DNA of 64,000 nucleotides, taken from contig CAWBMV010000022.1 in the NCBI GenBank assembly GCA_963789955.1, positions 512,001-576,000 of the forward strand, read 5' to 3'. Made by a program: the position numbers and the translations under genes. This document shows positions 41,488-53,013 of this stretch, piece by piece. The stretch is from an uncultured Candidatus Rokubacteria bacterium (lineage in GTDB: Bacteria; Methylomirabilota; Methylomirabilia; Rokubacteriales; CSP1-6). A model generated the notes under the pieces. The model was not told the origin of the DNA, searched no databases, and saw nothing but the letters and a program-made list of their open reading frames with translations. How positions within the stretch are numbered: the first letter of the stretch is position 1; every line of letters begins with the position of its first letter.

Positions 41488-42942
41488 TCACGCGTAGCCG
41501 GGCGGCGGCACGAACGCCTGGAACTCGCGCTCGAGGAGCCGCGCGAAGGCCAGGCACTTCAGATCGCCGTACTGCGGGCCGACGATCTGCACGCCGACCG
41601 GCAGCCCGCCCGGCGTGAACCCGCACGGCGCGGCGGTCGAGGGCAGGAAGAACGCGCCGCTGTAGCCGGCCCAGAACAGGTGATCGGTGACGGGAACGCG
41701 CTGACCGTTGACGACCAGGGTGCGCTCGTGGCGCTCGCCCTTGTGATCGTGAGGAAACGCCGCGGTGCCGGCGACGGGGCAGAGGAGCAGGTCGTATTGC
41801 GTGAAGAACTCCGCCCACGCGCGCCGCATGCGATGGCGCGTCTCGTTCGCGGCGAGCCAGTCGCGGTGTGACAGGACCGCCGCGCGCATGGCCCGCGCGT
41901 AGTAGCTCTGGTCGCTGACGGCGAGCCCGCGGGCGATCGCCGTGTTCTGCTCGAAATCGGTATCGCTCTGACGATCCGAGGTCGCGGCGCGCAGGAGCCG
42001 TGTGTAGACGCTGAAGGCCTCGCCGGTGTCGATCGCCGGGCGGGCGCGCGCGTCGACCTTCACTTTCTGCCGGCCCAGGAAGTCGCCCAGCGCTTGCAGG
42101 CGGTCTTGCACCTCGCGATCCACCGCCACCCCAGGCGCGTCGAGCATCAGGGCCACCTTGAAGTCACGCAGCCGCTTCTGCCGCGGCGGTACCAGCCGGA
42201 GCTGCCACCCCGCGGCCTCGATCTCGTCGGGGCCGGCCATGACCGAGAGCGCGAGCGCGAGATCCTCGGCACTGCGCGCCAGCGGGCCGACGACGTCGAT
42301 GTCGACGGCCGCCGTCTGCCAGGGCAGCGCCTGACCGGTGCGCGGCACGATGCCCCAGCTCGGCTTGTGGCCGTAGACGCCGCAGAAGTGCGCCGGGTTG
42401 CGGATCGACGAGCCGATATCGCTGCCGGCTTCGAGTCCGGTGAGCCCGGCCGCGAGGGCCGCCGCGGAGCCGCCCGACGATCCGCCGGGCGCGCGCGTCA
42501 CGTCCCACGGATTGTTCGTCGTCCCGTAGATCGCGTTGTAGCTCTGCCAGTCGGCCAGAAACAGCGGCACGTTCGTCTTGCCGAAGAGCACGACGCCGGC
42601 GCCGAGCAGCCGGTCGACGGCGACCGCGTTCTTCGTCGCGACGTTCTTGGCGTACGCGGGCACGCCCCAGGTCGTCGGCAGGCCCGCGACGTCGTACGAC
42701 TCCTTGATCGTCATCGGCACGCCGTGCAGCGGCCCCCACACTTGGCGTCGCGCCAGCGCCCGGTCGGCCGCACGCGCGCGGGTGCGCGCGCGCTCGAAGT
42801 CGCGAACGACGACGGCATTCAGGGCACCGTCGTACTTTTCGACCCGGGCCAGGTAGAGGTCCAGCAGCTCCAGGCAGCCGATCTTTTTCTTGCGGACGTC
42901 CGCGGCGAGCTGCTTGGCGGAGCGGAAGGGGATATCGAGCAT
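41488..42942 (-). CDS. Amidase
   Basis: TIKES, GKTNVP, GGSSGGS, GSDIGSSIRNPA. Confidence 0.93.
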   Translation of the reverse strand: MLDIPFRSAKQLAADVRKKKIGCLELLDLYLARVEKYDGALNAVVVRDFERARTRARAADRALARRQVWGPLHGVPMTIKESYDVAGLPTTWGVPAYAKNVATKNAVAVDRLLGAGVVLFGKTNVPLFLADWQSYNAIYGTTNNPWDVTRAPGGSSGGSAAALAAGLTGLEAGSDIGSSIRNPAHFCGVYGHKPSWGIVPRTGQALPWQTAAVDIDVVGPLARSAEDLALALSVMAGPDEIEAAGWQLRLVPPRQKRLRDFKVALMLDAPGVAVDREVQDRLQALGDFLGRQKVKVDARARPAIDTGEAFSVYTRLLRAATSDRQSDTDFEQNTAIARGLAVSDQSYYARAMRAAVLSHRDWLAANETRHRMRRAWAEFFTQYDLLLCPVAGTAAFPHDHKGERHERTLVVNGQRVPVTDHLFWAGYSGAFFLPSTAAPCGFTPGGLPVGVQIVGPQYGDLKCLAFARLLEREFQAFVPPPGYA

Positions 42943-42994
42943 GGCCGGCCTCCGCGAAGTATACTGCGCTTCCTATGAACAGATCGGAGCGCCC

Positions 42995-43759
42995 GTGACC
43001 GAGTCGATCCGGCCGCATCCCGTCCTGGAAGAGTATTACCCGGTCCAGTCCGACCGCCAGTCGTTCGTCGACGAGCTGTTCAACGGCTCCGCCAAGTATT
43101 ACAACCACATCGGGCGGATGCTCGATTGGGGCTCTGGGCCCATGTACCGCCGCCAGGCGCTCCAGCGCGCCGGGCTCAAGAAGGGCATGCGGCTCCTGGA
43201 CGTCGCGACCGGCACCGGTCTGGTGGCCCTCGGGGGGGGCCAGGTGGTTGGCGATCCCCGGCGGGTGGTCGGCATCGACCCGAACAGCGAGATGCTGCGC
43301 GAGGCGCGGATGGCGCTGTCGAGCCCGCTGGTTCGGGGTCGGGCCGAGATTCTGCCGTTCCGGTCCGACACCTTCGACATGCTCAGCATGGGCTTCGCCT
43401 TGCGCCACGTCGAAGATCTCGAAATCGCCTTCCGCGAATACCGGCGTGTCCTGAAGCCCGGCGGACGCATGCTGCTCATCGAGGTGTCGCGTCCGAAGTC
43501 GCGGATCATGCGATGGGTGATCCGGACCCACTTCCAGCGTGTCTTGCCGTGGCTGGCGCGTGTCACGACCCGGAGCGAGCCGGCGCAGCTCCTGATGAAA
43601 TTCTACTGGGACACGATCGACCAGTGCGTCCCGCCGGACACGATCCTCGACGTGCTGCGGCGTAACGGCTTCGTCGACCTGAAGCGGCGAGTGTGGTGCG
43701 GTTTTCTCAGCGAGTACGTCGCCGTCAAGTCCCGCGGATCGGCGCCGTCACCCGCCTGA
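42995..43759 (+). CDS. UbiE/MenG-like SAM methyltransferase
   Basis: LDVATGTG, FDMLSMGFALRHV, RRVLKPGG. Confidence 0.85.
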   Translation: MTESIRPHPVLEEYYPVQSDRQSFVDELFNGSAKYYNHIGRMLDWGSGPMYRRQALQRAGLKKGMRLLDVATGTGLVALGGGQVVGDPRRVVGIDPNSEMLREARMALSSPLVRGRAEILPFRSDTFDMLSMGFALRHVEDLEIAFREYRRVLKPGGRMLLIEVSRPKSRIMRWVIRTHFQRVLPWLARVTTRSEPAQLLMKFYWDTIDQCVPPDTILDVLRRNGFVDLKRRVWCGFLSEYVAVKSRGSAPSPA

Positions 43760-43769
43760 GGCTCGACCC

Positions 43770-45083
43770 TCAGCGGATGGCGAGATCCGCCGGGTCGACG
43801 CCGCGCAAGCCGTAGCGGCCCAGAAAGCGCAGGAGGCCGCGACTGTAGCGCGATGTGGTCGCGGCACCGCTGGCCAGGAGCCCCACGTGCTTCGCGATGT
43901 GCGTCTGCATCGCGCGCTTGACCGCCCCGGGATTCTCCGGCATCCAGGACTTCCCGGCCTGGATCAGCGCCGCCAGCCGACCGTCGTAGAGGTACGCGAC
44001 CAGCTCGAGCCAGGCCGTCAGCATCGCGTTCTGACTGGCCGCGTATGACGTCAGCACGGAGTCGAGCTCGGCGGGCGAGGGGATCGCGCGCCGCCGCAGC
44101 CAGGGCGTGAGCGCGTCGGCCAGCTGCTCGGACGAGCGGAGCGCCAGGAACACGCCCGGCGACAGCATCGGATCGACGAAGCCGAACGAGTCGCCGACCA
44201 TCGCCCAGCCGCGCCCGAAGCCGCGCTCGGAGATCAGCTGGTAGTTGGCGTAGGTCGCGACGTCCGTGACGCGCCGACCTTCGCCGGCGATGAACGTGAG
44301 CCCCGGGTCGATCGCGATGGCGCGCTCGAGCCGCTCCTCCGGCGTGCGCCCCAGGCGCGCCGCGTCGTCCTGGCCCAGCACGATGCCGATCGAGAGCCGC
44401 TCCTGGAGCGGGATGCACCAGCTCCAGCCCGCCTCGCCCCGAGCGATCCGCACCTGGCCCGGCACGTCGTCCCAGCGGCATCCCTCGAAGTGGGCGAAGT
44501 GCGCGACGTCCTTGCGAGGCCCGAGCCGCGCCGGAATGCCGAGCGCGCGAGCCGCGAGTCGGGCGCGTCCGGTCGCGTCGACGATCAGCTCCGGCTGCTC
44601 TCCGGAAAGCGCCGGCGCCGACCTGAGCGTCTCGGGACTCAGCTGGAGCTCCGCCCGCGCCTCAGCCGACGGACTCGGCACCAGTTGCGCTCGCCCGGTC
44701 ACGTAGTCGACGCCCGACGCGATCGCCTTGGCGAGCAGCGCGTCGTCGAAATGCGGCCGCGGGACGTTGTAGGCGTACGGGAAGACGGCGGGCGCGAAGC
44801 GATTGAAGGTGACGCTCACCCGATCCGACCCAGACCAGACGAACGAGACGCCGGGCTTCACGCGGCTGAAGCTGGCCGTTTCCTTTTCCAGATCGAGCCG
44901 CTGCAGGATCGGGATCACCGCGGGGACGAGCGACTCGCCGACGAGCAGCTCCGGGCGGCGTCCGTCGTCGAAGAGCGTCACGGCGGCGCCCTCGCGCGCC
45001 AACAAGATGGCCAGGGCGGAGCCGGCAGGTCCGGCGCCGACGATGGCGACGCGCAGCCGCCGAATCCCGTTGTTGTCGCTCAC
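43770..45083 (-). CDS. Flavin-dependent halogenase-family protein
   Basis: GAGPAG, VGESL, SRVKPG (Lys), GWSWCIP (WxWxIP), VGDSFGFVDPMLSPG. Confidence 0.82.
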   Translation of the reverse strand: MSDNNGIRRLRVAIVGAGPAGSALAILLAREGAAVTLFDDGRRPELLVGESLVPAVIPILQRLDLEKETASFSRVKPGVSFVWSGSDRVSVTFNRFAPAVFPYAYNVPRPHFDDALLAKAIASGVDYVTGRAQLVPSPSAEARAELQLSPETLRSAPALSGEQPELIVDATGRARLAARALGIPARLGPRKDVAHFAHFEGCRWDDVPGQVRIARGEAGWSWCIPLQERLSIGIVLGQDDAARLGRTPEERLERAIAIDPGLTFIAGEGRRVTDVATYANYQLISERGFGRGWAMVGDSFGFVDPMLSPGVFLALRSSEQLADALTPWLRRRAIPSPAELDSVLTSYAASQNAMLTAWLELVAYLYDGRLAALIQAGKSWMPENPGAVKRAMQTHIAKHVGLLASGAATTSRYSRGLLRFLGRYGLRGVDPADLAIR

Positions 45084-46402
45084 GGCGCGATCCTCCATCC
45101 CATGGCTTCGCGAATCACCTCGAGAATTCTGTCTGCCTCGGCCTCGGACACGACGCCCTCGATCCACGACACGACGAGGTTGTTCCGGCCGCCGCAGCGA
45201 TTGAAGAATACTCCGATCCCCGGTCGCGGGGGAACCACCGGCACATGGTACGCGTTGACGACCTTGCGTCCGAAGCATTCGGCGAGCGCGTCCGGCCAGT
45301 CGGCGAGGTCGGCGCAGTTGAACGAGAACAGCTCCCCGCTCGCCGTCCACGGAAGCACCCGCAGCATCCGCGACAGGGGCTGGTACTGCAGGAACTCCAG
45401 CGCGACCTGGTTGGCCTCGATCTGTCCGTCGCGGACCGCCTCGGCCATCTGACGACGAAGCGTCCGCGCCAGCGCGGGCACGTCCGCGGTCTCGGCGGGC
45501 TGGAATCGCGCGAAGTGGAACGCGAGGTGATTCCCAAAGGTCGCGCCCAGCTCTCCCTTCGGGCGCACGTCGACCGAGATCGGCAGCAGGCACGGGACCT
45601 CGGGTGTCCTTCGCCGGCGCGCGAGCTCCGCCATCGCCTTGCCGACCACCGCGACGCGCCAGCAGATCTCCCGTGTCGCGCGCTGGTCGGTCGAGTCGGG
45701 AGCGACGTAGCTCTGCCGGCGGAAGCAGGCTCGGCCCGGCGGCAGCGGCGGGCCCCCGGGTGAGACCGGCGGCACGGGTGCGAGCGTCCGCAGATATTTC
45801 AGGCTGCCGCCGGCGATGCGGCCGCGCGCGACGAGCGAGCGGCGGTCTTGCTCGGACACGAATGCGGGCGGCGTGTCGCCCCAGGGCGTGTCCTCGTGCC
45901 GGTCGAGCTCGTTGAGGTGCGTCAGGAGAATCTCTCCCCCGCGCGCGTCCATGAGCGGATGAAACCAGGTCAGCACGAGGACGCTCGACGGCGTGGGACG
46001 CGCGGACGAGTCCTCGACGATCAGCATGCGCAGCGGCGCCTCGCGTCGCGGCTCGATGGCGCGGTTGAGCTCGGCCGTCAGCTCGCGCGGGAGCTGCTCG
46101 CGCGCGGTGATGGTGACGCGACGGAGCGACGGGCGCTCGAGCGTCTCGCGCGCTCCGGCGACCCAGTGCAGCTTGCCCCAGGGGAAGGGACGCGTGAGCC
46201 GCGCCGAGGGCCAGGGGCACACGTCGAGAAATCGATCCCAGGCGCGCGTGATGCGGCTCGCGTCGATCCGGCCGTCGCACTCGACGACGAGCGACGTGTT
46301 GTGGCCGAGCCCCACGCCTTTCCACCGAGGGTGGTGCGCCAGCAGGACGAGATCCGCCCCGCGCAGGGGCAGTCGGCGCACGTCTCGCTTCAGCGCGGGC
46401 AA
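45080..46402 (-). CDS. CoA-dependent acyltransferase/condensation-like protein; start uncertain
   Basis: APLRMLI...LVLTWFHPLMDARG (HHxxxDG-like), PISVDVR...FGN; stop overlaps the halogenase start. Confidence 0.65.
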   Translation of the reverse strand: MPALKRDVRRLPLRGADLVLLAHHPRWKGVGLGHNTSLVVECDGRIDASRITRAWDRFLDVCPWPSARLTRPFPWGKLHWVAGARETLERPSLRRVTITAREQLPRELTAELNRAIEPRREAPLRMLIVEDSSARPTPSSVLVLTWFHPLMDARGGEILLTHLNELDRHEDTPWGDTPPAFVSEQDRRSLVARGRIAGGSLKYLRTLAPVPPVSPGGPPLPPGRACFRRQSYVAPDSTDQRATREICWRVAVVGKAMAELARRRRTPEVPCLLPISVDVRPKGELGATFGNHLAFHFARFQPAETADVPALARTLRRQMAEAVRDGQIEANQVALEFLQYQPLSRMLRVLPWTASGELFSFNCADLADWPDALAECFGRKVVNAYHVPVVPPRPGIGVFFNRCGGRNNLVVSWIEGVVSEAEADRILEVIREAMGWRIAP

Positions 46403-46512
46403 TGGAGTTCCTTCAGCGAATCGTCTCCTGATACCGGCCAGGACTCTGACCCGGCTTGCAGGGCATGTCAAGGGACCCTACACTCTGCGCGGAGTACCAG
46501 AAGGAGCGAGCG

Positions 46513-48570: not shown

Positions 48571-48600
48571 TTGACGGTTATCGGAGCGCTTTGCTAGTGT
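48571..48600 (+). promoter_or_regulatory. Putative sigma70 promoter for the riboswitch leader
   Basis: TTGACG-N18-TAGTGT with extended -10 TG. Confidence 0.45.
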
Positions 48601-48617
48601 TTTTCTGTTGCGCGCGC

Positions 48618-48762
48618 CCGGGTGCCCGTTTGGGCCCAGGGAAGGCGGTGCGAATCCGCCGCGACCCCGTCACTGTAACCGGGGACGAAACCCGAAAGAG
48701 CCACTGGCGATTTGCTGGGAAGGCCCGGGGAGTAGGACGATCCGGAAGCCAGGAGACCTACC
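48618..48762 (+). ncRNA. Cobalamin (B12) riboswitch
   Basis: GGTGC...AGGGAAGGCGGTGCGAATCCGCCGCGACCCCGTCACTGTAA...GCCACTG...GGGAAGG...AAGCCAGGAGACCT: the typical conserved segments including the B12 box. Confidence 0.93.
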
Positions 48763-48808
48763 CGGGCGCGAACCCGAAACCGGTCTTCGAGGGAGGACCA
48801 GGGATCAG

Positions 48809-49150
48809 ATGATCTTTCCCCAGAACGTCAGTGCGCGGCGCGCCGCGGAGGTGCTGCACCGTGTCTTCGACGGAATTCCCGGCGGCTTTGCCTTTCGCCT
48901 CTGGGACGGATCGGTCGTGAACCTCGGTGGTGGCACGCCCGTGTGCACGGCCGTCGTTCACCAGCCGCAGACCTTCATCCGACTCATTCGTGACCCGACG
49001 CCGCTCACCTTCGCCGAGGCCTACGTCGACGGCTCCATCGACCTCGAGGGCGATCTGTTCGACGCCATGAGCGTCGCGAACTCGATCGAAGAGATTCGCG
49101 TGCCGTTCGTGGAGCGGTTGCGCGTCCTCTTCACTCTCTGGCGTGGCTGA
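48809..49150 (+). CDS. Stand-alone N-terminal (lipid-binding-like) domain of CFA synthases
   Basis: FRLWDGS...PTPLTFAEAYVDGSIDLEGDLFDAM. Confidence 0.75.
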   Translation: MIFPQNVSARRAAEVLHRVFDGIPGGFAFRLWDGSVVNLGGGTPVCTAVVHQPQTFIRLIRDPTPLTFAEAYVDGSIDLEGDLFDAMSVANSIEEIRVPFVERLRVLFTLWRG

Positions 49151-50279
49151 CGTGGCCCAGCACGACGTCATCGTGGTCGGTGGCGGGCCGGGCGGCAGCA
49201 CCGCGGCATGGCGGCTCGCGCGGGCCGGCTTTCGCCCGCTGCTTCTGGACGCCGCGGTCTTTCCACGGGTGAAGATCTGCGCCGGGTGGGTCACCCCCGA
49301 AGCGCTTGCCGACGCCCAGGTCGATCCTCAGAAGTATCCGCTGACCATCCAGGCGTTCTCGGCATGCCGGTTCGAGTTCGACGGCGCGCGCACCGAGACG
49401 CGGTGGCAGCGGCCAGCCAGCTACGGGATCCTCCGCCGGGAGTTCGACCACTATCTGCTCGACCGCGCCCGCGCCGCCGGCGTCGACGTGCGCGAAGGAG
49501 CCCGGGTGACCGAGGTGGCGCAGGACGCCGACGGGATCCGGGTCGTGAGCCCGCACGGCACGTTCAGCGCGCCGCTCGTCATCGGCGCCGGGGGTCATCG
49601 CTGCCCGGTCGCTCAGGCGCTCGGGCAGGTGTCCGAGCAGGAAGAGGTCGTGATCGCGCAGGAGAGCGAGACGCGGCTCACGCCCGAGCGCGTCGAGTCG
49701 CTCGGCAAGTGGTGGGAAGCCCCCGAGCTCTACGTCGAGCCGGATCTCAAAGGCTACGGCTGGTACTTCCCCAAGGGTGACGTCCTCAATGTCGGCGTCG
49801 GCTGCGTGTCGGGCCCCGGTGCGGATCTGCCGCGGCGGCGCGACGCGCTCGTGAGCGCGCTGCGGGCCGCGGGTCGGCTGCCGGCCGATCTCACTATCGA
49901 GCCGTTTCGCGGCCACGCCTACGTCGTGCGCCGCCGCGCGCCGCGCAAGCTCGCCGGCGACCGGTTCTGCCTCGTCGGCGACGCCGCGGGACTGGCGCGC
50001 GATCTGAGCGGCGAGGGGATCGGGCCGGCGATCAAGAGCGGGATCCTCGCCGCCGAGGCGGTCGAGGCGCGCCTGCGCACGGGCGCCGGCTTCGACGCGT
50101 ATGCGGCCGCCATCGTGCGGCGGTACGGAACGGGAGAAACGGGGTGGCTCGGCCGCCAGCTCGCGCGGATCCCCGATTCGTGGGCGCGGGTGTTCGTGCG
50201 CGCCATTCTCAACACGGAAGCCACGAGACGGCACGTCGTATTCGGACGCATCTTCGGGATGCGGGAGGTCGCATCGTGA
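49143..50279 (+). CDS. Geranylgeranyl-reductase-like NAD(P)/FAD oxidoreductase
   Basis: VGGGPGGS, FPRVKICAG, RREFDHYL, GYGWYFPK, VGDAAG...GEGIGPAIKSG. Confidence 0.85.
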   Translation: MADVAQHDVIVVGGGPGGSTAAWRLARAGFRPLLLDAAVFPRVKICAGWVTPEALADAQVDPQKYPLTIQAFSACRFEFDGARTETRWQRPASYGILRREFDHYLLDRARAAGVDVREGARVTEVAQDADGIRVVSPHGTFSAPLVIGAGGHRCPVAQALGQVSEQEEVVIAQESETRLTPERVESLGKWWEAPELYVEPDLKGYGWYFPKGDVLNVGVGCVSGPGADLPRRRDALVSALRAAGRLPADLTIEPFRGHAYVVRRRAPRKLAGDRFCLVGDAAGLARDLSGEGIGPAIKSGILAAEAVEARLRTGAGFDAYAAAIVRRYGTGETGWLGRQLARIPDSWARVFVRAILNTEATRRHVVFGRIFGMREVAS

Positions 50280-51181
50280 GGGCACGCAGCAAGGAAGCGG
50301 ACGCCAAGGCGATCTCGCACCACTACGACGTCTCCAACGAGTTCTACGCGCTGTTCCTCGACCCGCTGATGGTCTACACCTGCGCCTACTATCGCGATCC
50401 CGACGGCAAGCTCGAGCAGGCCCAGCGCGACAAGCTCGAGCTGGTGTGCCGCAAGCTCGAGCTCGAGGCGGGCGAGACGTTGCTCGACATCGGGTGCGGC
50501 TGGGGCAGCCTGTCGATCTGGGCGGCCCAGCACTACGGGGTGCGCGCCCACGGCGTGACCCTGTCGAAGGCACAGGCCGACTACGCGACCGAGCGCATCC
50601 GCCAGGAAGGGCTCGAGGACCGCTGCAAGGTCGAATATCGGGACTACCGCGATCTGCCGCCGGACGTGCGCTTCGACAAGATCGCCGCGGTCGGGGTGAT
50701 CGAGCACGTCGGCATTCCGAACTATCCCGCGTTCTTCGGCGGCGTTCACCGGATGTTGCGGGACGGCGGCCTCTATCTGAATCACGGCATCGTTCACGAG
50801 TTCCACTGGAAGGCGAGCAGCCAGACCGAGTTCCTCTATCGCCACGTCTTCCCGAACGGCGATCTGGCGGGGCTCAGCGAGACGATCACCGAGATCGAGC
50901 GCGCCGGCTTCGAGATCGTGGACGTCGAGGGGCTGCGGCTGCACTACGCGCGGACCTGCCGCCACTGGGTCGAGCGCCTGCGCGAGCGGGCCGACGAGGC
51001 GCGCGCGCTGGCCGGCGAGCGGACGTACCGGACCTGGCTTCTCTACCTGACGTGCTCGGCGGTCGCGTTTGCCGAGAGCTCCATCGGGCTCTACCAGGTC
51101 CTGACCAGAAAACAGCATGATCCCGTCGTGACTCGCGCGCCACACACGCGCGAGCACCTATACGGCAAGGCATTCCTGTGA
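50276..51181 (+). CDS. Cyclopropane-fatty-acyl-phospholipid synthase-family SAM methyltransferase (catalytic domain only)
   Basis: ISHHYDVSNEFY, MVYTCAYY, LDIGCGWG, GVTLS..Q, DYRDL, IEHVG, HYARTC. Confidence 0.9.
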   Translation: MRARSKEADAKAISHHYDVSNEFYALFLDPLMVYTCAYYRDPDGKLEQAQRDKLELVCRKLELEAGETLLDIGCGWGSLSIWAAQHYGVRAHGVTLSKAQADYATERIRQEGLEDRCKVEYRDYRDLPPDVRFDKIAAVGVIEHVGIPNYPAFFGGVHRMLRDGGLYLNHGIVHEFHWKASSQTEFLYRHVFPNGDLAGLSETITEIERAGFEIVDVEGLRLHYARTCRHWVERLRERADEARALAGERTYRTWLLYLTCSAVAFAESSIGLYQVLTRKQHDPVVTRAPHTREHLYGKAFL

Positions 51182-51206
51182 CCCAACGACCGGAAAGGAA
51201 GATGCG

Positions 51207-51947
51207 TTGACTCGTCAGATCTTGATCATCACGATCGCGTCGTTCGTCCTGGCGGAGATTTCCACCTTCGCGACCTCCATCTATCTGCACCGCGCGCTGG
51301 CGCACCGATCGCTGTCCCTGCAGCCGGTGACGGCCCTGCTGTTCCGCGCGGCGCTCTGGCTCCTGACCGGTCAGAGCCAGCAGCAGTGGGTGGCGGTCCA
51401 CCGTAAGCACCACACGTTCACCGACCGCGACGGCGACCCGCACAGTCCGCTGCTCCTGGGCTTCTGGAAGGTGCAGCTGTGGAACGCGTACTACTACATC
51501 CGCGAGGCCCGGCAGCCCAAGACCGTGGAGACCTTCGCGCCCGATCTGGCCCCCGACTGGTGGGAACGGCGCGTGTTCTCGTGGGGCTGGACCGGCCTCT
51601 TCCTCGGCACCGCGCTCGTCATGCTCGCCATCGGCTGGTGGCAGGGCATCCTGGCCATGATCGGCCACGGCATCATCTATATGTTCATCCTGGCGCCGCT
51701 GATCAACGGCCTCGGCCACTGGGCGGGCGGCCAGAACTTCCAGAACACGGCCTACAACTCGCGCGTGCTCGCGTGGCTGACCGGCGGCGAGAGCCTGCAC
51801 AACAACCACCACGCGTTTCCGCGCTCGCCGAAGTTCAGCTTGCGGCGCTCGGAGCTCGATCCCTCGTGGGTCGCGATCCGGCTGCTGGCTGCCTTGCGTC
51901 TGGTGGCGATCGTCGGGGCGCCGCTGCGGGCGCGGACGACGCGCTAG
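51207..51947 (+). CDS. Membrane fatty-acid desaturase (delta-9-like)
   Basis: His boxes HRALAH, HRKHH and HNNHH; DPHSP; NGLGH. Confidence 0.92.
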   Translation: MTRQILIITIASFVLAEISTFATSIYLHRALAHRSLSLQPVTALLFRAALWLLTGQSQQQWVAVHRKHHTFTDRDGDPHSPLLLGFWKVQLWNAYYYIREARQPKTVETFAPDLAPDWWERRVFSWGWTGLFLGTALVMLAIGWWQGILAMIGHGIIYMFILAPLINGLGHWAGGQNFQNTAYNSRVLAWLTGGESLHNNHHAFPRSPKFSLRRSELDPSWVAIRLLAALRLVAIVGAPLRARTTR

Positions 51948-51954
51948 GACGGCG

Positions 51955-53013
51955 ATGGCGCCTCCGCCGCTCGAGCTGAGTCTCGAGCTCTCGGCGCGCG
52001 AGCGCTTCGAGATGGTCGAGCTGCGCTCGCGCTTCTCGAGCGAGCACGCCGACTCGCTCGCGTCGTATCCGCGGTGCCTCTACTGGTCGGCCCACACGAC
52101 GGCCGGGTTCCTGGATCGCAGCCTGATCAGGGACCTGGACTCCGACCACATTTCCACCTACATCGAGACCTTGCGCCAGATCTTCCCGGAGGGCGCGGGG
52201 TACGCGCACGACCGGCTGGAGCGCCGCAAGGATCTCGACGCCGCCCAGCGCGCGGTCGAGCCGCGCAACGGCGACTCGCACCTGGCCTTCATCACCGGCG
52301 GGCTCCAGCCGTGCGTGACCCACCCGAACCGCGCCGGCGAGTCCGTGTGTTTCGTCGACCTCGACGGCGTCAACGACGGGCGGCCGCGCCGCCGCCAGAC
52401 GCGCGTGATCGGTTTCCATCGCGAGATGGTCGCCGGGCAGATGCGCCTGCGGGTGCCGCTCTCCGGGCATTCGATCGACTCGGTCAATCTCAAGAGCCCG
52501 GCGCTCGGTCTCTACGACCAGCTTGCCGAGTTCGTGGCGCGCTCCGATGTGGACAAGGGCCGGCTCCACATCGCGCTCGGCCGCGGCGAGCGAGATGCCG
52601 CGCTGACGATCAACGAGTTCGAGACGCTCCTGATGAAGAACGACCTGGCCGCCGTGCTGAAGAACCCGCTCCGGTTCATGGCGGAGGAGTACCGGCAGGC
52701 GCTGGCCAACCCCCGCGCGGTGCCCGGCAAGGCGCTCGGCTACGCGCAGTACGATCTGGTCCGCGTGCTCAACACCGGCCTCAAGACGCTCGGCCTGCAC
52801 GGCTCCGTGCTGGAGCGGGTGCTCGCCCGCACCCTGGCGGTGCCCGTGGCCCGAATGTTTCGCGTGAGGCGGTCGATCAGCGTGCTGGTGGCCGGTGATG
52901 GAAGCCGCTCCGGCCCCGTCGAGGGCGTTTATCAGAGCCCGATCCTGATCCAGTGGCAGCGCGCGCCTCGAGACCTGCGCGAGCTCGACGTCACGCTGTA
53001 TCGGCTCGAGTAG
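51955..53013 (+). CDS. Hypothetical protein with two YjbQ-like half-domains
   Basis: SAHTTAG...FP....Y.HD...NGDSHL in the N-half; AALTINE...DL in the C-half. Confidence 0.55.
   Translation: MAPPPLELSLELSARERFEMVELRSRFSSEHADSLASYPRCLYWSAHTTAGFLDRSLIRDLDSDHISTYIETLRQIFPEGAGYAHDRLERRKDLDAAQRAVEPRNGDSHLAFITGGLQPCVTHPNRAGESVCFVDLDGVNDGRPRRRQTRVIGFHREMVAGQMRLRVPLSGHSIDSVNLKSPALGLYDQLAEFVARSDVDKGRLHIALGRGERDAALTINEFETLLMKNDLAAVLKNPLRFMAEEYRQALANPRAVPGKALGYAQYDLVRVLNTGLKTLGLHGSVLERVLARTLAVPVARMFRVRRSISVLVAGDGSRSGPVEGVYQSPILIQWQRAPRDLRELDVTLYRLE

Follow-up and report, generated by a model that had tools for sequence, protein, structure and literature searches.

Why would a bacterium place genes for the modification of fatty acids under the control of vitamin B12? 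The question is raised by a 64,000-nucleotide (nt) stretch of DNA from an uncultured Candidatus Rokubacteria bacterium (GenBank assembly GCA_963789955.1, contig CAWBMV010000022.1, positions 512,001 to 576,000 of the forward strand; the whole stretch is called the window below), in which a cobalamin riboswitch stands before five co-oriented open reading frames (ORFs; Table 1). A first-pass annotation had proposed this arrangement and had stated that none of the five genes serves B12 transport or synthesis. Both statements were confirmed: the Rfam scan of the window returned a full-length match to RF00174 (model positions 1–189, E 2e-28, gathering threshold 31.5 bits) and no other RNA match in the 64 kb, and domain assignments placed zero B12 transport or synthesis genes among ORF1 to ORF5, which follow one another on the plus strand with junctions of -8, -4, +25 and +7 nt. 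We lean, with slightly more than even confidence, towards an operon that B12 represses and that places methyl branches in the middle of membrane fatty acid chains; its product would replace some B12-dependent lipid methylation or branching.

The linkage of switch and genes is not an assembly artefact, since one contig from another soil metagenome run extends from the switch through ORF1 and across most of ORF2 (positions 48649–50077 of the window; 21 differences in 1429 bases, 98.5% identity); this best-matching run could be related to the source sample of the window. Contigs from three RNA-library runs covered parts of the switch and genes and were not taken as expression, because such contigs give neither strand nor level and may be DNA. 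Close relatives of the operon proteins bear Rokubacteria or Methylomirabilota names.

The control region has the layout expected of an OFF switch. Position 48571, where the first-pass annotation began the element, marks the -35 box of a promoter that is conserved, its pattern being kept in 16 of 20 loci of the switch lineage without an intact switch; a simple consensus promoter scan made no call at 48571–48600. Following the aptamer, the P13 loop CGAGGG is complementary to the L5 loop CCCCG, and the ribosome site lies within P13/L13. P13 folds as a hairpin (z -1.5 taken alone). Across 11 sequences, namely ten lipid-operon switches and the switch before cobU in this genome, 95.5% of cells were paired, with four two-sided changes, and P13 was 98.5% paired; the four L5–L13 pairs were invariant in 11/11 sequences, which amounts to no covariation evidence, and related sequences may beat shuffles without structure. 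The L5–L13 loop arrangement is described for cobalamin riboswitches, including those of metE/metH, in the accessible passages of PMC9600662, and by analogy cobalamin-driven repression of translation is expected here. The earlier proposal that the operon is switched on when cobalamin is scarce agrees with this structure as a predicted response, and the switch proved to be conserved by selection.

Selection was evident because the switch is far better conserved than the four-fold sites of ORF2. Its identity to the window's copy was 87–94% in eight of nine orthologous relatives and 75% in the ninth, compared with 46–62% for the four-fold sites (7 loci, two frameshifted loci left out). A short leader ORF begins just 3' of the ribosome site and ends on the ORF1 start (ATGA) in four of nine relatives; it is in frame with ORF1 in one, and the other four have either an earlier stop or a long leader. 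The lipid-operon switch and the one that precedes cobU-cobT-btu in this genome share 86% identity and the P13 hairpin, and in one relative the two switches stand back to back, 3 kb apart. It likely arose by duplication of the cobU switch.

The first three genes would encode one enzymatic module. ORF1 aligns to positions 17–81 of the CfaB model and matches the N-terminal domain of cyclopropane fatty acid (CFA) synthases, which we take to be lipid-binding. ORF3 supplies the catalytic domain (310.8 bits to PF02353), and its residues C36, E143, H170 and Y224, presumably the bicarbonate-binding ligands, were invariant in 22 sequences. In the tree, ORF3 fell with BfaB-like and CfaB-like proteins (support 0.96) and separate from the TmpB-like clade; it carries FPNGDL and groups with FPDGEL proteins rather than with the TmpB-like ones that have FPGAYPP. 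Each of the BfaB-like actinomycete proteins in this clade has a BfaA-type gene (PF01565, binding flavin adenine dinucleotide, FAD) directly upstream. The best NCBIfam model for ORF3 was CfaB (NF040703), at 342 bits for the domain against a cut-off of 650 set for the whole protein. ORF2 scored 186.5 bits to TIGR02032 of the geranylgeranyl reductase (GGR) family (cut-off 158.8) and carries 6/6 TmpA motifs, compared with 0–1 in four other GGR proteins; the motifs were taken by eye from five published TmpA sequences and compared as motifs. Judged by the motifs of ORF2 and the tree position of ORF3, the module is a hybrid, a TmpA-type reductase placed between the two domains of a split BfaB/CfaB-type methyltransferase.

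Table 1. Features of the cobalamin-switched operon (positions in the window)
Feature	Position	Strand	Basis
Sigma-70-type promoter (predicted)	48571..48600	+	TTGACG, 18 nt, extended -10 TG-C-TAGTGT; conservation upstream of operon
Cobalamin riboswitch aptamer RF00174 with P6 extension	48603..48779	+	116.1 bits; L5 loop CCCCG 48665-48669
P13 hairpin	48782..48799	+	GGTCTT-CGAGGG-AGGACC; Shine-Dalgarno GGAGG 48792-48796 in loop and 3' strand
ORF1, 113 amino acids (aa), free-standing CFA-family methyltransferase N-domain	48809..49150	+	PF25371 DUF7884
ORF2, 378 aa, TmpA-family flavin reductase (GGR superfamily)	49143..50279	+	TIGR02032
ORF3, 301 aa, catalytic domain of CFA-family S-adenosylmethionine (SAM) methyltransferase, BfaB/CfaB clade	50276..51181	+	PF02353 CMAS
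ORF4, 246 aa, membrane fatty-acid desaturase, accessory	51207..51947	+	PF00487, three His boxes
ORF5, 352 aa, YjbQ-fold protein (UPF0047), accessory	51955..53013	+	Weak sequence match and Foldseek

Like the tmpBA operon, the module joins a CFA-family methyltransferase to a GGR-like flavoprotein, with TmpA motifs in ORF2 and conservation of the residues presumed to form the bicarbonate site. The methyltransferase here is split, in the order N-tmpA-C, and belongs to the BfaB/CfaB clade, whereas tmpB encodes a single chain upstream of tmpA; the window's operon also adds a desaturase, a YjbQ protein and the cobalamin switch. According to the accessible parts of PMC7791843, tmpBA occurs in Desulfobacter, Desulfobacula, Marinobacter and Thiohalospira, TmpB forms 10-methylene palmitate, TmpA resembles geranylgeranyl reductases, and an adjacent reductase is the criterion that separates bfa and tmp operons from plain cfa genes. 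With bfaAB, the tuberculostearate genes of actinomycetes (parts of PMC5660069 and PMC7791843), the operon shares the clade of ORF3 and the same proposed two-step chemistry, whereas BfaA belongs to the PF01565 flavoproteins and is unrelated to ORF2, which has no PF01565 match, and BfaB is a single chain.

Under cobalamin-bound conditions, L5 would pair with L13, hiding the ribosome site and leaving the coupled ORFs untranslated; under scarcity they would be translated. ORF1 and ORF3, acting as one split methyltransferase, would convert a cis-monoenoic acyl chain and SAM to a 10-methylene chain, which ORF2 would reduce to the 10-methyl chain, as suggested by tmpBA and bfaAB. ORF4 would supply the substrate, and ORF5 would be a passenger or helper. 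A methyl-branched chain as the product is fairly probable because the reductase is fixed within the split methyltransferase gene; methylene rather than cyclopropane chemistry is not readable from the sequence. ORF2 may be a TmpA able to function in air, unlike the published TmpA, because it is paired with an oxygen-dependent desaturase. In the first-pass annotation the genes formed one sequence of desaturation, methylenation and reduction. Its latter two steps have a close precedent, which it did not name, in tmpBA of the accessible parts of PMC7791843; the five genes are not a single pathway, because the desaturase and YjbQ genes come and go and a paralogue of the desaturase lies at another place in the genome.

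The phylum-wide distribution bears out this separation between a core and its additions. ORF2 matches were found in 100 of 251 genomes of the phylum and in 96 of 158 of the family; the tallies of ORF2, HpnR and CFA genes include two unpublished genomes (G243 and G135), on neither of which any single claim rests, and the counts are descriptive, the genomes being incomplete and related. Sixty of the 106 listed places with ORF2 matches, spread over genera, were fetched. The order N-GGR-CFA was found in 57/60, a whole cfa followed by GGR in one and other GGR families in two, and in 46/60 neither desaturase nor YjbQ lay beside N, GGR and CFA. One genome bin (G019) holds three copies of the module (L180, L181, L193). 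In Acidobacteriota, 18 of 301 genomes hold a TmpA-type reductase, which follows a full-length cfa on the same strand at 15 of the 18 loci, is divergent at one and has no cfa in view at two; the cobalamin switch was absent from all 18. No ORF2 relatives were found on plasmids at E 1e-20.

The reductase tree contained two sister lineages (support 0.85, duplicates counted once, 22 further outgroups). An earlier tree with one outgroup had placed the three-gene lineage within the switch lineage and was overturned when the 22 outgroups were added. The switch lineage comprised 30 copies, mostly five-gene, with an intact switch in 10, model-scored remnants in 4 and little or nothing in 16. The deletions had differing end points even among the nearest relatives of the window, and the promoter was mostly retained. 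Probably, a copy of the cobU switch would have been gained once by the five-gene lineage and retained by selection in roughly one member in three, repeated deletion leading to constitutive expression; loss of the switch in the sister lineage is the alternative to a single gain.

The desaturase and YjbQ genes are detachable from the operon. One genome kept the switch with an internally deleted desaturase, another kept only the promoter and YjbQ, and two kept the promoter, desaturase, YjbQ and a switch remnant (seen by eye, unscored by the model). ORF4 has the His boxes HRALAH, HRKHH and HNNHH and a 62–63% identical paralogue on another contig of the same genome, and its family was present in 45 of 49 tested genomes, frequently at other loci. 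The sequence match of ORF5 to UPF0047/YjbQ was weak (E 7e-5, under the Pfam and NCBIfam cut-offs), and no PDB relative was found by sequence; the best Foldseek matches of its predicted model (pLDDT 86.5) were all YjbQ structures (E 2e-7 to 1vph). At about 2.5 times the usual YjbQ length, it is probably two fused YjbQ domains with one putative His/His/His-Asp metal site, and H47, H85, D86 and H109 were invariant in 31 sequences. ORF5 was rejected as an operon marker as misleading: its family member stood alone in 71 of the best 80 GTDB loci (of at least 565 confirmed), mostly in Acidobacteriota, and among those 80 the solitary loci had no switch and no common lipid neighbours. The long YjbQ-fold family, with its invariant His cluster and varying neighbours, is widespread alone in Vicinamibacterales.

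What B12 has to do with this chemistry was sought in precedents and in a possible B12-dependent partner. The cobalamin riboswitch class, like its isoenzyme logic, is textbook knowledge, and the argument of the first-pass annotation that such switches also govern B12-independent isoenzymes held within the lineage: in 20 regions around further switches in relatives, metE lay downstream in one and nrdA(B) in two, while the others precede cobB, cobU, TonB receptors, binding proteins or no gene in view. With the RF00174 metE and nrdAB regulons (metE/metH in the accessible passages of PMC9600662) the operon shares the RNA class, the L5–L13 loop and the OFF logic, whereas its target is a lipid-modifying operon without a known B12-dependent counterpart. 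One relative (G010, L378:2181–2625) carries two tandem cobalamin switches about 130 nt apart before TonB receptor-like and cobQ-like ORFs. This genome encodes HpnR above its cut-off (890.7 bits), squalene-hopene cyclase, MetH, four B12 radical SAM genes without family assignment and short B12-binding proteins. A B12-binding radical SAM gene of 611 aa, without family assignment, lies directly after glyA and nrdR (G000:C6:252855–254690; L223:6855–8690), and many of the family's genomes contain matches of similar size. HpnR, CobU and general B12 radical SAM content were each tried as correlates of switch retention and none tracks it; B12 radical SAM (BchE-like) genes occur in 62/62 genomes, so their co-occurrence with the switch is uninformative.

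Several results weigh against a B12-repressed methyl-branching operon that stands in for B12-dependent lipid modification. The switch is intact in only 10/30 operons of its own lineage and in 0/43 copies of the three-gene sister lineage, many of which have their own TTGACA-type promoter; homologous Rokubacteria-type operons thus mostly lack it (kept in 10/73), the outcome that the first-pass annotation had itself named as telling against its proposal. The lipid-switch losers kept CobU (18/19) and other cobalamin switches (18/19), and HpnR was found in 8/10 keepers and 13/19 losers, so that switch loss does not track loss of any of the three. In the window the leader ORF is absent, with 12 nt between the ribosome site and the ORF1 start. 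MetH is present and the search of this genome found no full-length MetE match (24 matches to the family of single-domain cobalamin-independent methionine synthases, best E 3.5e-29, none strong), so a SAM-consuming enzyme would be costly under B12 scarcity. The nearest named relatives of ORF3 are stand-alone, single-chain CfaB-like genes of proteobacteria (52–54% identity), with no reductase alongside in the two records opened. TmpA was inactive in E. coli and yeast and its activity never demonstrated, according to the accessible parts of PMC7791843. The weakest step of the proposal, that the product substitutes for a B12-dependent source of methyl-branched or methylated membrane lipid, could as well be wrong as right.

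The alternatives differ in which link of the argument they replace. If ORF1 and ORF3 were an ordinary cyclopropane synthase, with ORF2 reducing something else or opening the ring, the best-scoring model (CfaB, a C17 cyclopropane synthase), the CfaB-like nearest relatives and the position of ORF3 outside the TmpB clade would follow directly; the BfaB-like proteins with an upstream BfaA-type gene fall in the same clade as ORF3, and a TmpA gene inside a split methyltransferase in 57/60 loci is hard to explain otherwise, which makes this unlikely. The regulation may instead have been captured without any partner, a duplicated cobU switch being kept only where B12 cues habitat or growth state and decaying elsewhere. 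The resemblance to the cobU switch with the same P13, the genome holding both switches and the many deletions that spare the promoter all fit such a history, but conservation relative to silent sites and the retained leader coupling point to selection on B12 control itself, and we regard capture as doubtful, though less so than a plain cyclopropane synthase. Compensation for hopanoids, in which HpnR, which is B12-dependent according to the accessible part of PMC13459092, would make no 3-methylhopanoids without B12 and branched fatty acids would adjust the membrane instead, appears the most improbable. The presence here of HpnR and squalene-hopene cyclase and of HpnR in most keepers speaks for it, whereas HpnR is also found in most losers, two keepers (88% and 99% complete) have no HpnR match, and many HpnR genomes hold the unswitched three-gene module or no module.

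A strict isoenzyme backup, in which the operon replaces a B12-dependent route to the same 10-methyl fatty acid, is about as doubtful as captured regulation. A B12 radical SAM methylase could provide this route, or a B12-dependent acyl-CoA mutase that supplies methylmalonyl units for elongation; such units would put the methyl on an even carbon. The metE and nrdAB precedent in relatives and the unassigned B12 radical SAM genes and short B12-binding proteins of this genome are consistent with it. The first-pass annotation had cast the operon as backup for a B12-dependent lipid methylase; B12 radical SAM genes showed no co-variation with the switch, and their presence in every genome deprives co-occurrence of weight. 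It had also pointed to 10-methylhexadecanoate as a known major lipid of Methylomirabilis, where it is reported in the accessible part of PMC6581649. That lipid is not attributable to this operon: the pmoA-bearing family (f13; pmoA in 4/4 tested genomes), which we infer to be Methylomirabilis, was without these genes in the genomes searched: a CFA-family gene was found in 1/20 genomes, an ORF2 (TmpA-like) match in 0/20 and an ORF4 match in 0/4. Since Methylomirabilis makes the lipid with hardly any CFA genes, a second route should exist, and this absence leaves room for the one postulated by the first-pass annotation. On the other side, radical SAM proteins without family assignment from G113, a complete f13 genome, had best matches of only 28–35% in this genome, and the section list and searched passages of a review from 2026 on radical SAM enzymes of lipids (PMC13459092) include no mid-chain fatty-acid methylase and neither of the terms '10-methyl' and 'riboswitch'.

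The unassigned candidates in G113 comprise BchE-like radical SAM proteins of 794 and 453 aa, two HemN-like proteins and one TIGR03960 protein. A cluster of FAD oxidoreductase and methyltransferase genes in f13, considered as a hidden tmp analogue, was rejected as a type III polyketide synthase-like cluster; it consists of the synthase-like gene, methyltransferases and the FAD oxidoreductase (L284:8158–12453 in G113; L287 in G109), and in G109 a B12 radical SAM gene lies 3' of the methyltransferase. In the window itself, positions 42890–46471 (minus strand) hold a flavin-dependent halogenase-like ORF, a condensation-domain-like ORF and a methyltransferase, which look like a small natural-product biosynthesis cluster; the labels were given by eye, and the condensation-like ORF has no real Pfam match.

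The first-pass annotation knew of no description of this regulon, and the search agreed: no report of cobalamin control of a fatty-acid-modifying operon was found in the open-access literature, subscription journals, patents and bioRxiv supplements lying outside the search. The same literature yielded no split hybrid N-tmpA-C layout and one paper on the tmp system (PMC7791843). The enzyme pair is already published.

A membrane-lipid operon would be a new target class for cobalamin switches and would predict a B12-dependent lipid reaction yet to be discovered. The regulatory link is real and surprising and carries a testable prediction, and is weakened in that most homologues lack the switch and the B12-dependent counterpart is conjectural. 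The intact, half-deleted and lost switches clearly exemplify how a regulatory element is gained and decays. It is conceivable but doubtful, about as much so as the strict backup, that the switch marks a B12-dependent route, so far undescribed, by which Methylomirabilota would make mid-chain methyl-branched fatty acids and Methylomirabilis its 10-methylhexadecanoate without a CFA gene; the split Tmp/Bfa hybrid operon would be the B12-independent substitute for that route. 10-Methyl fatty acids serve as taxon markers in soils and sediments for actinomycetes, Desulfobacter and Methylomirabilis. A widespread soil lineage that holds this module in most genomes of its family, partly under B12 control, would alter how such markers are read.

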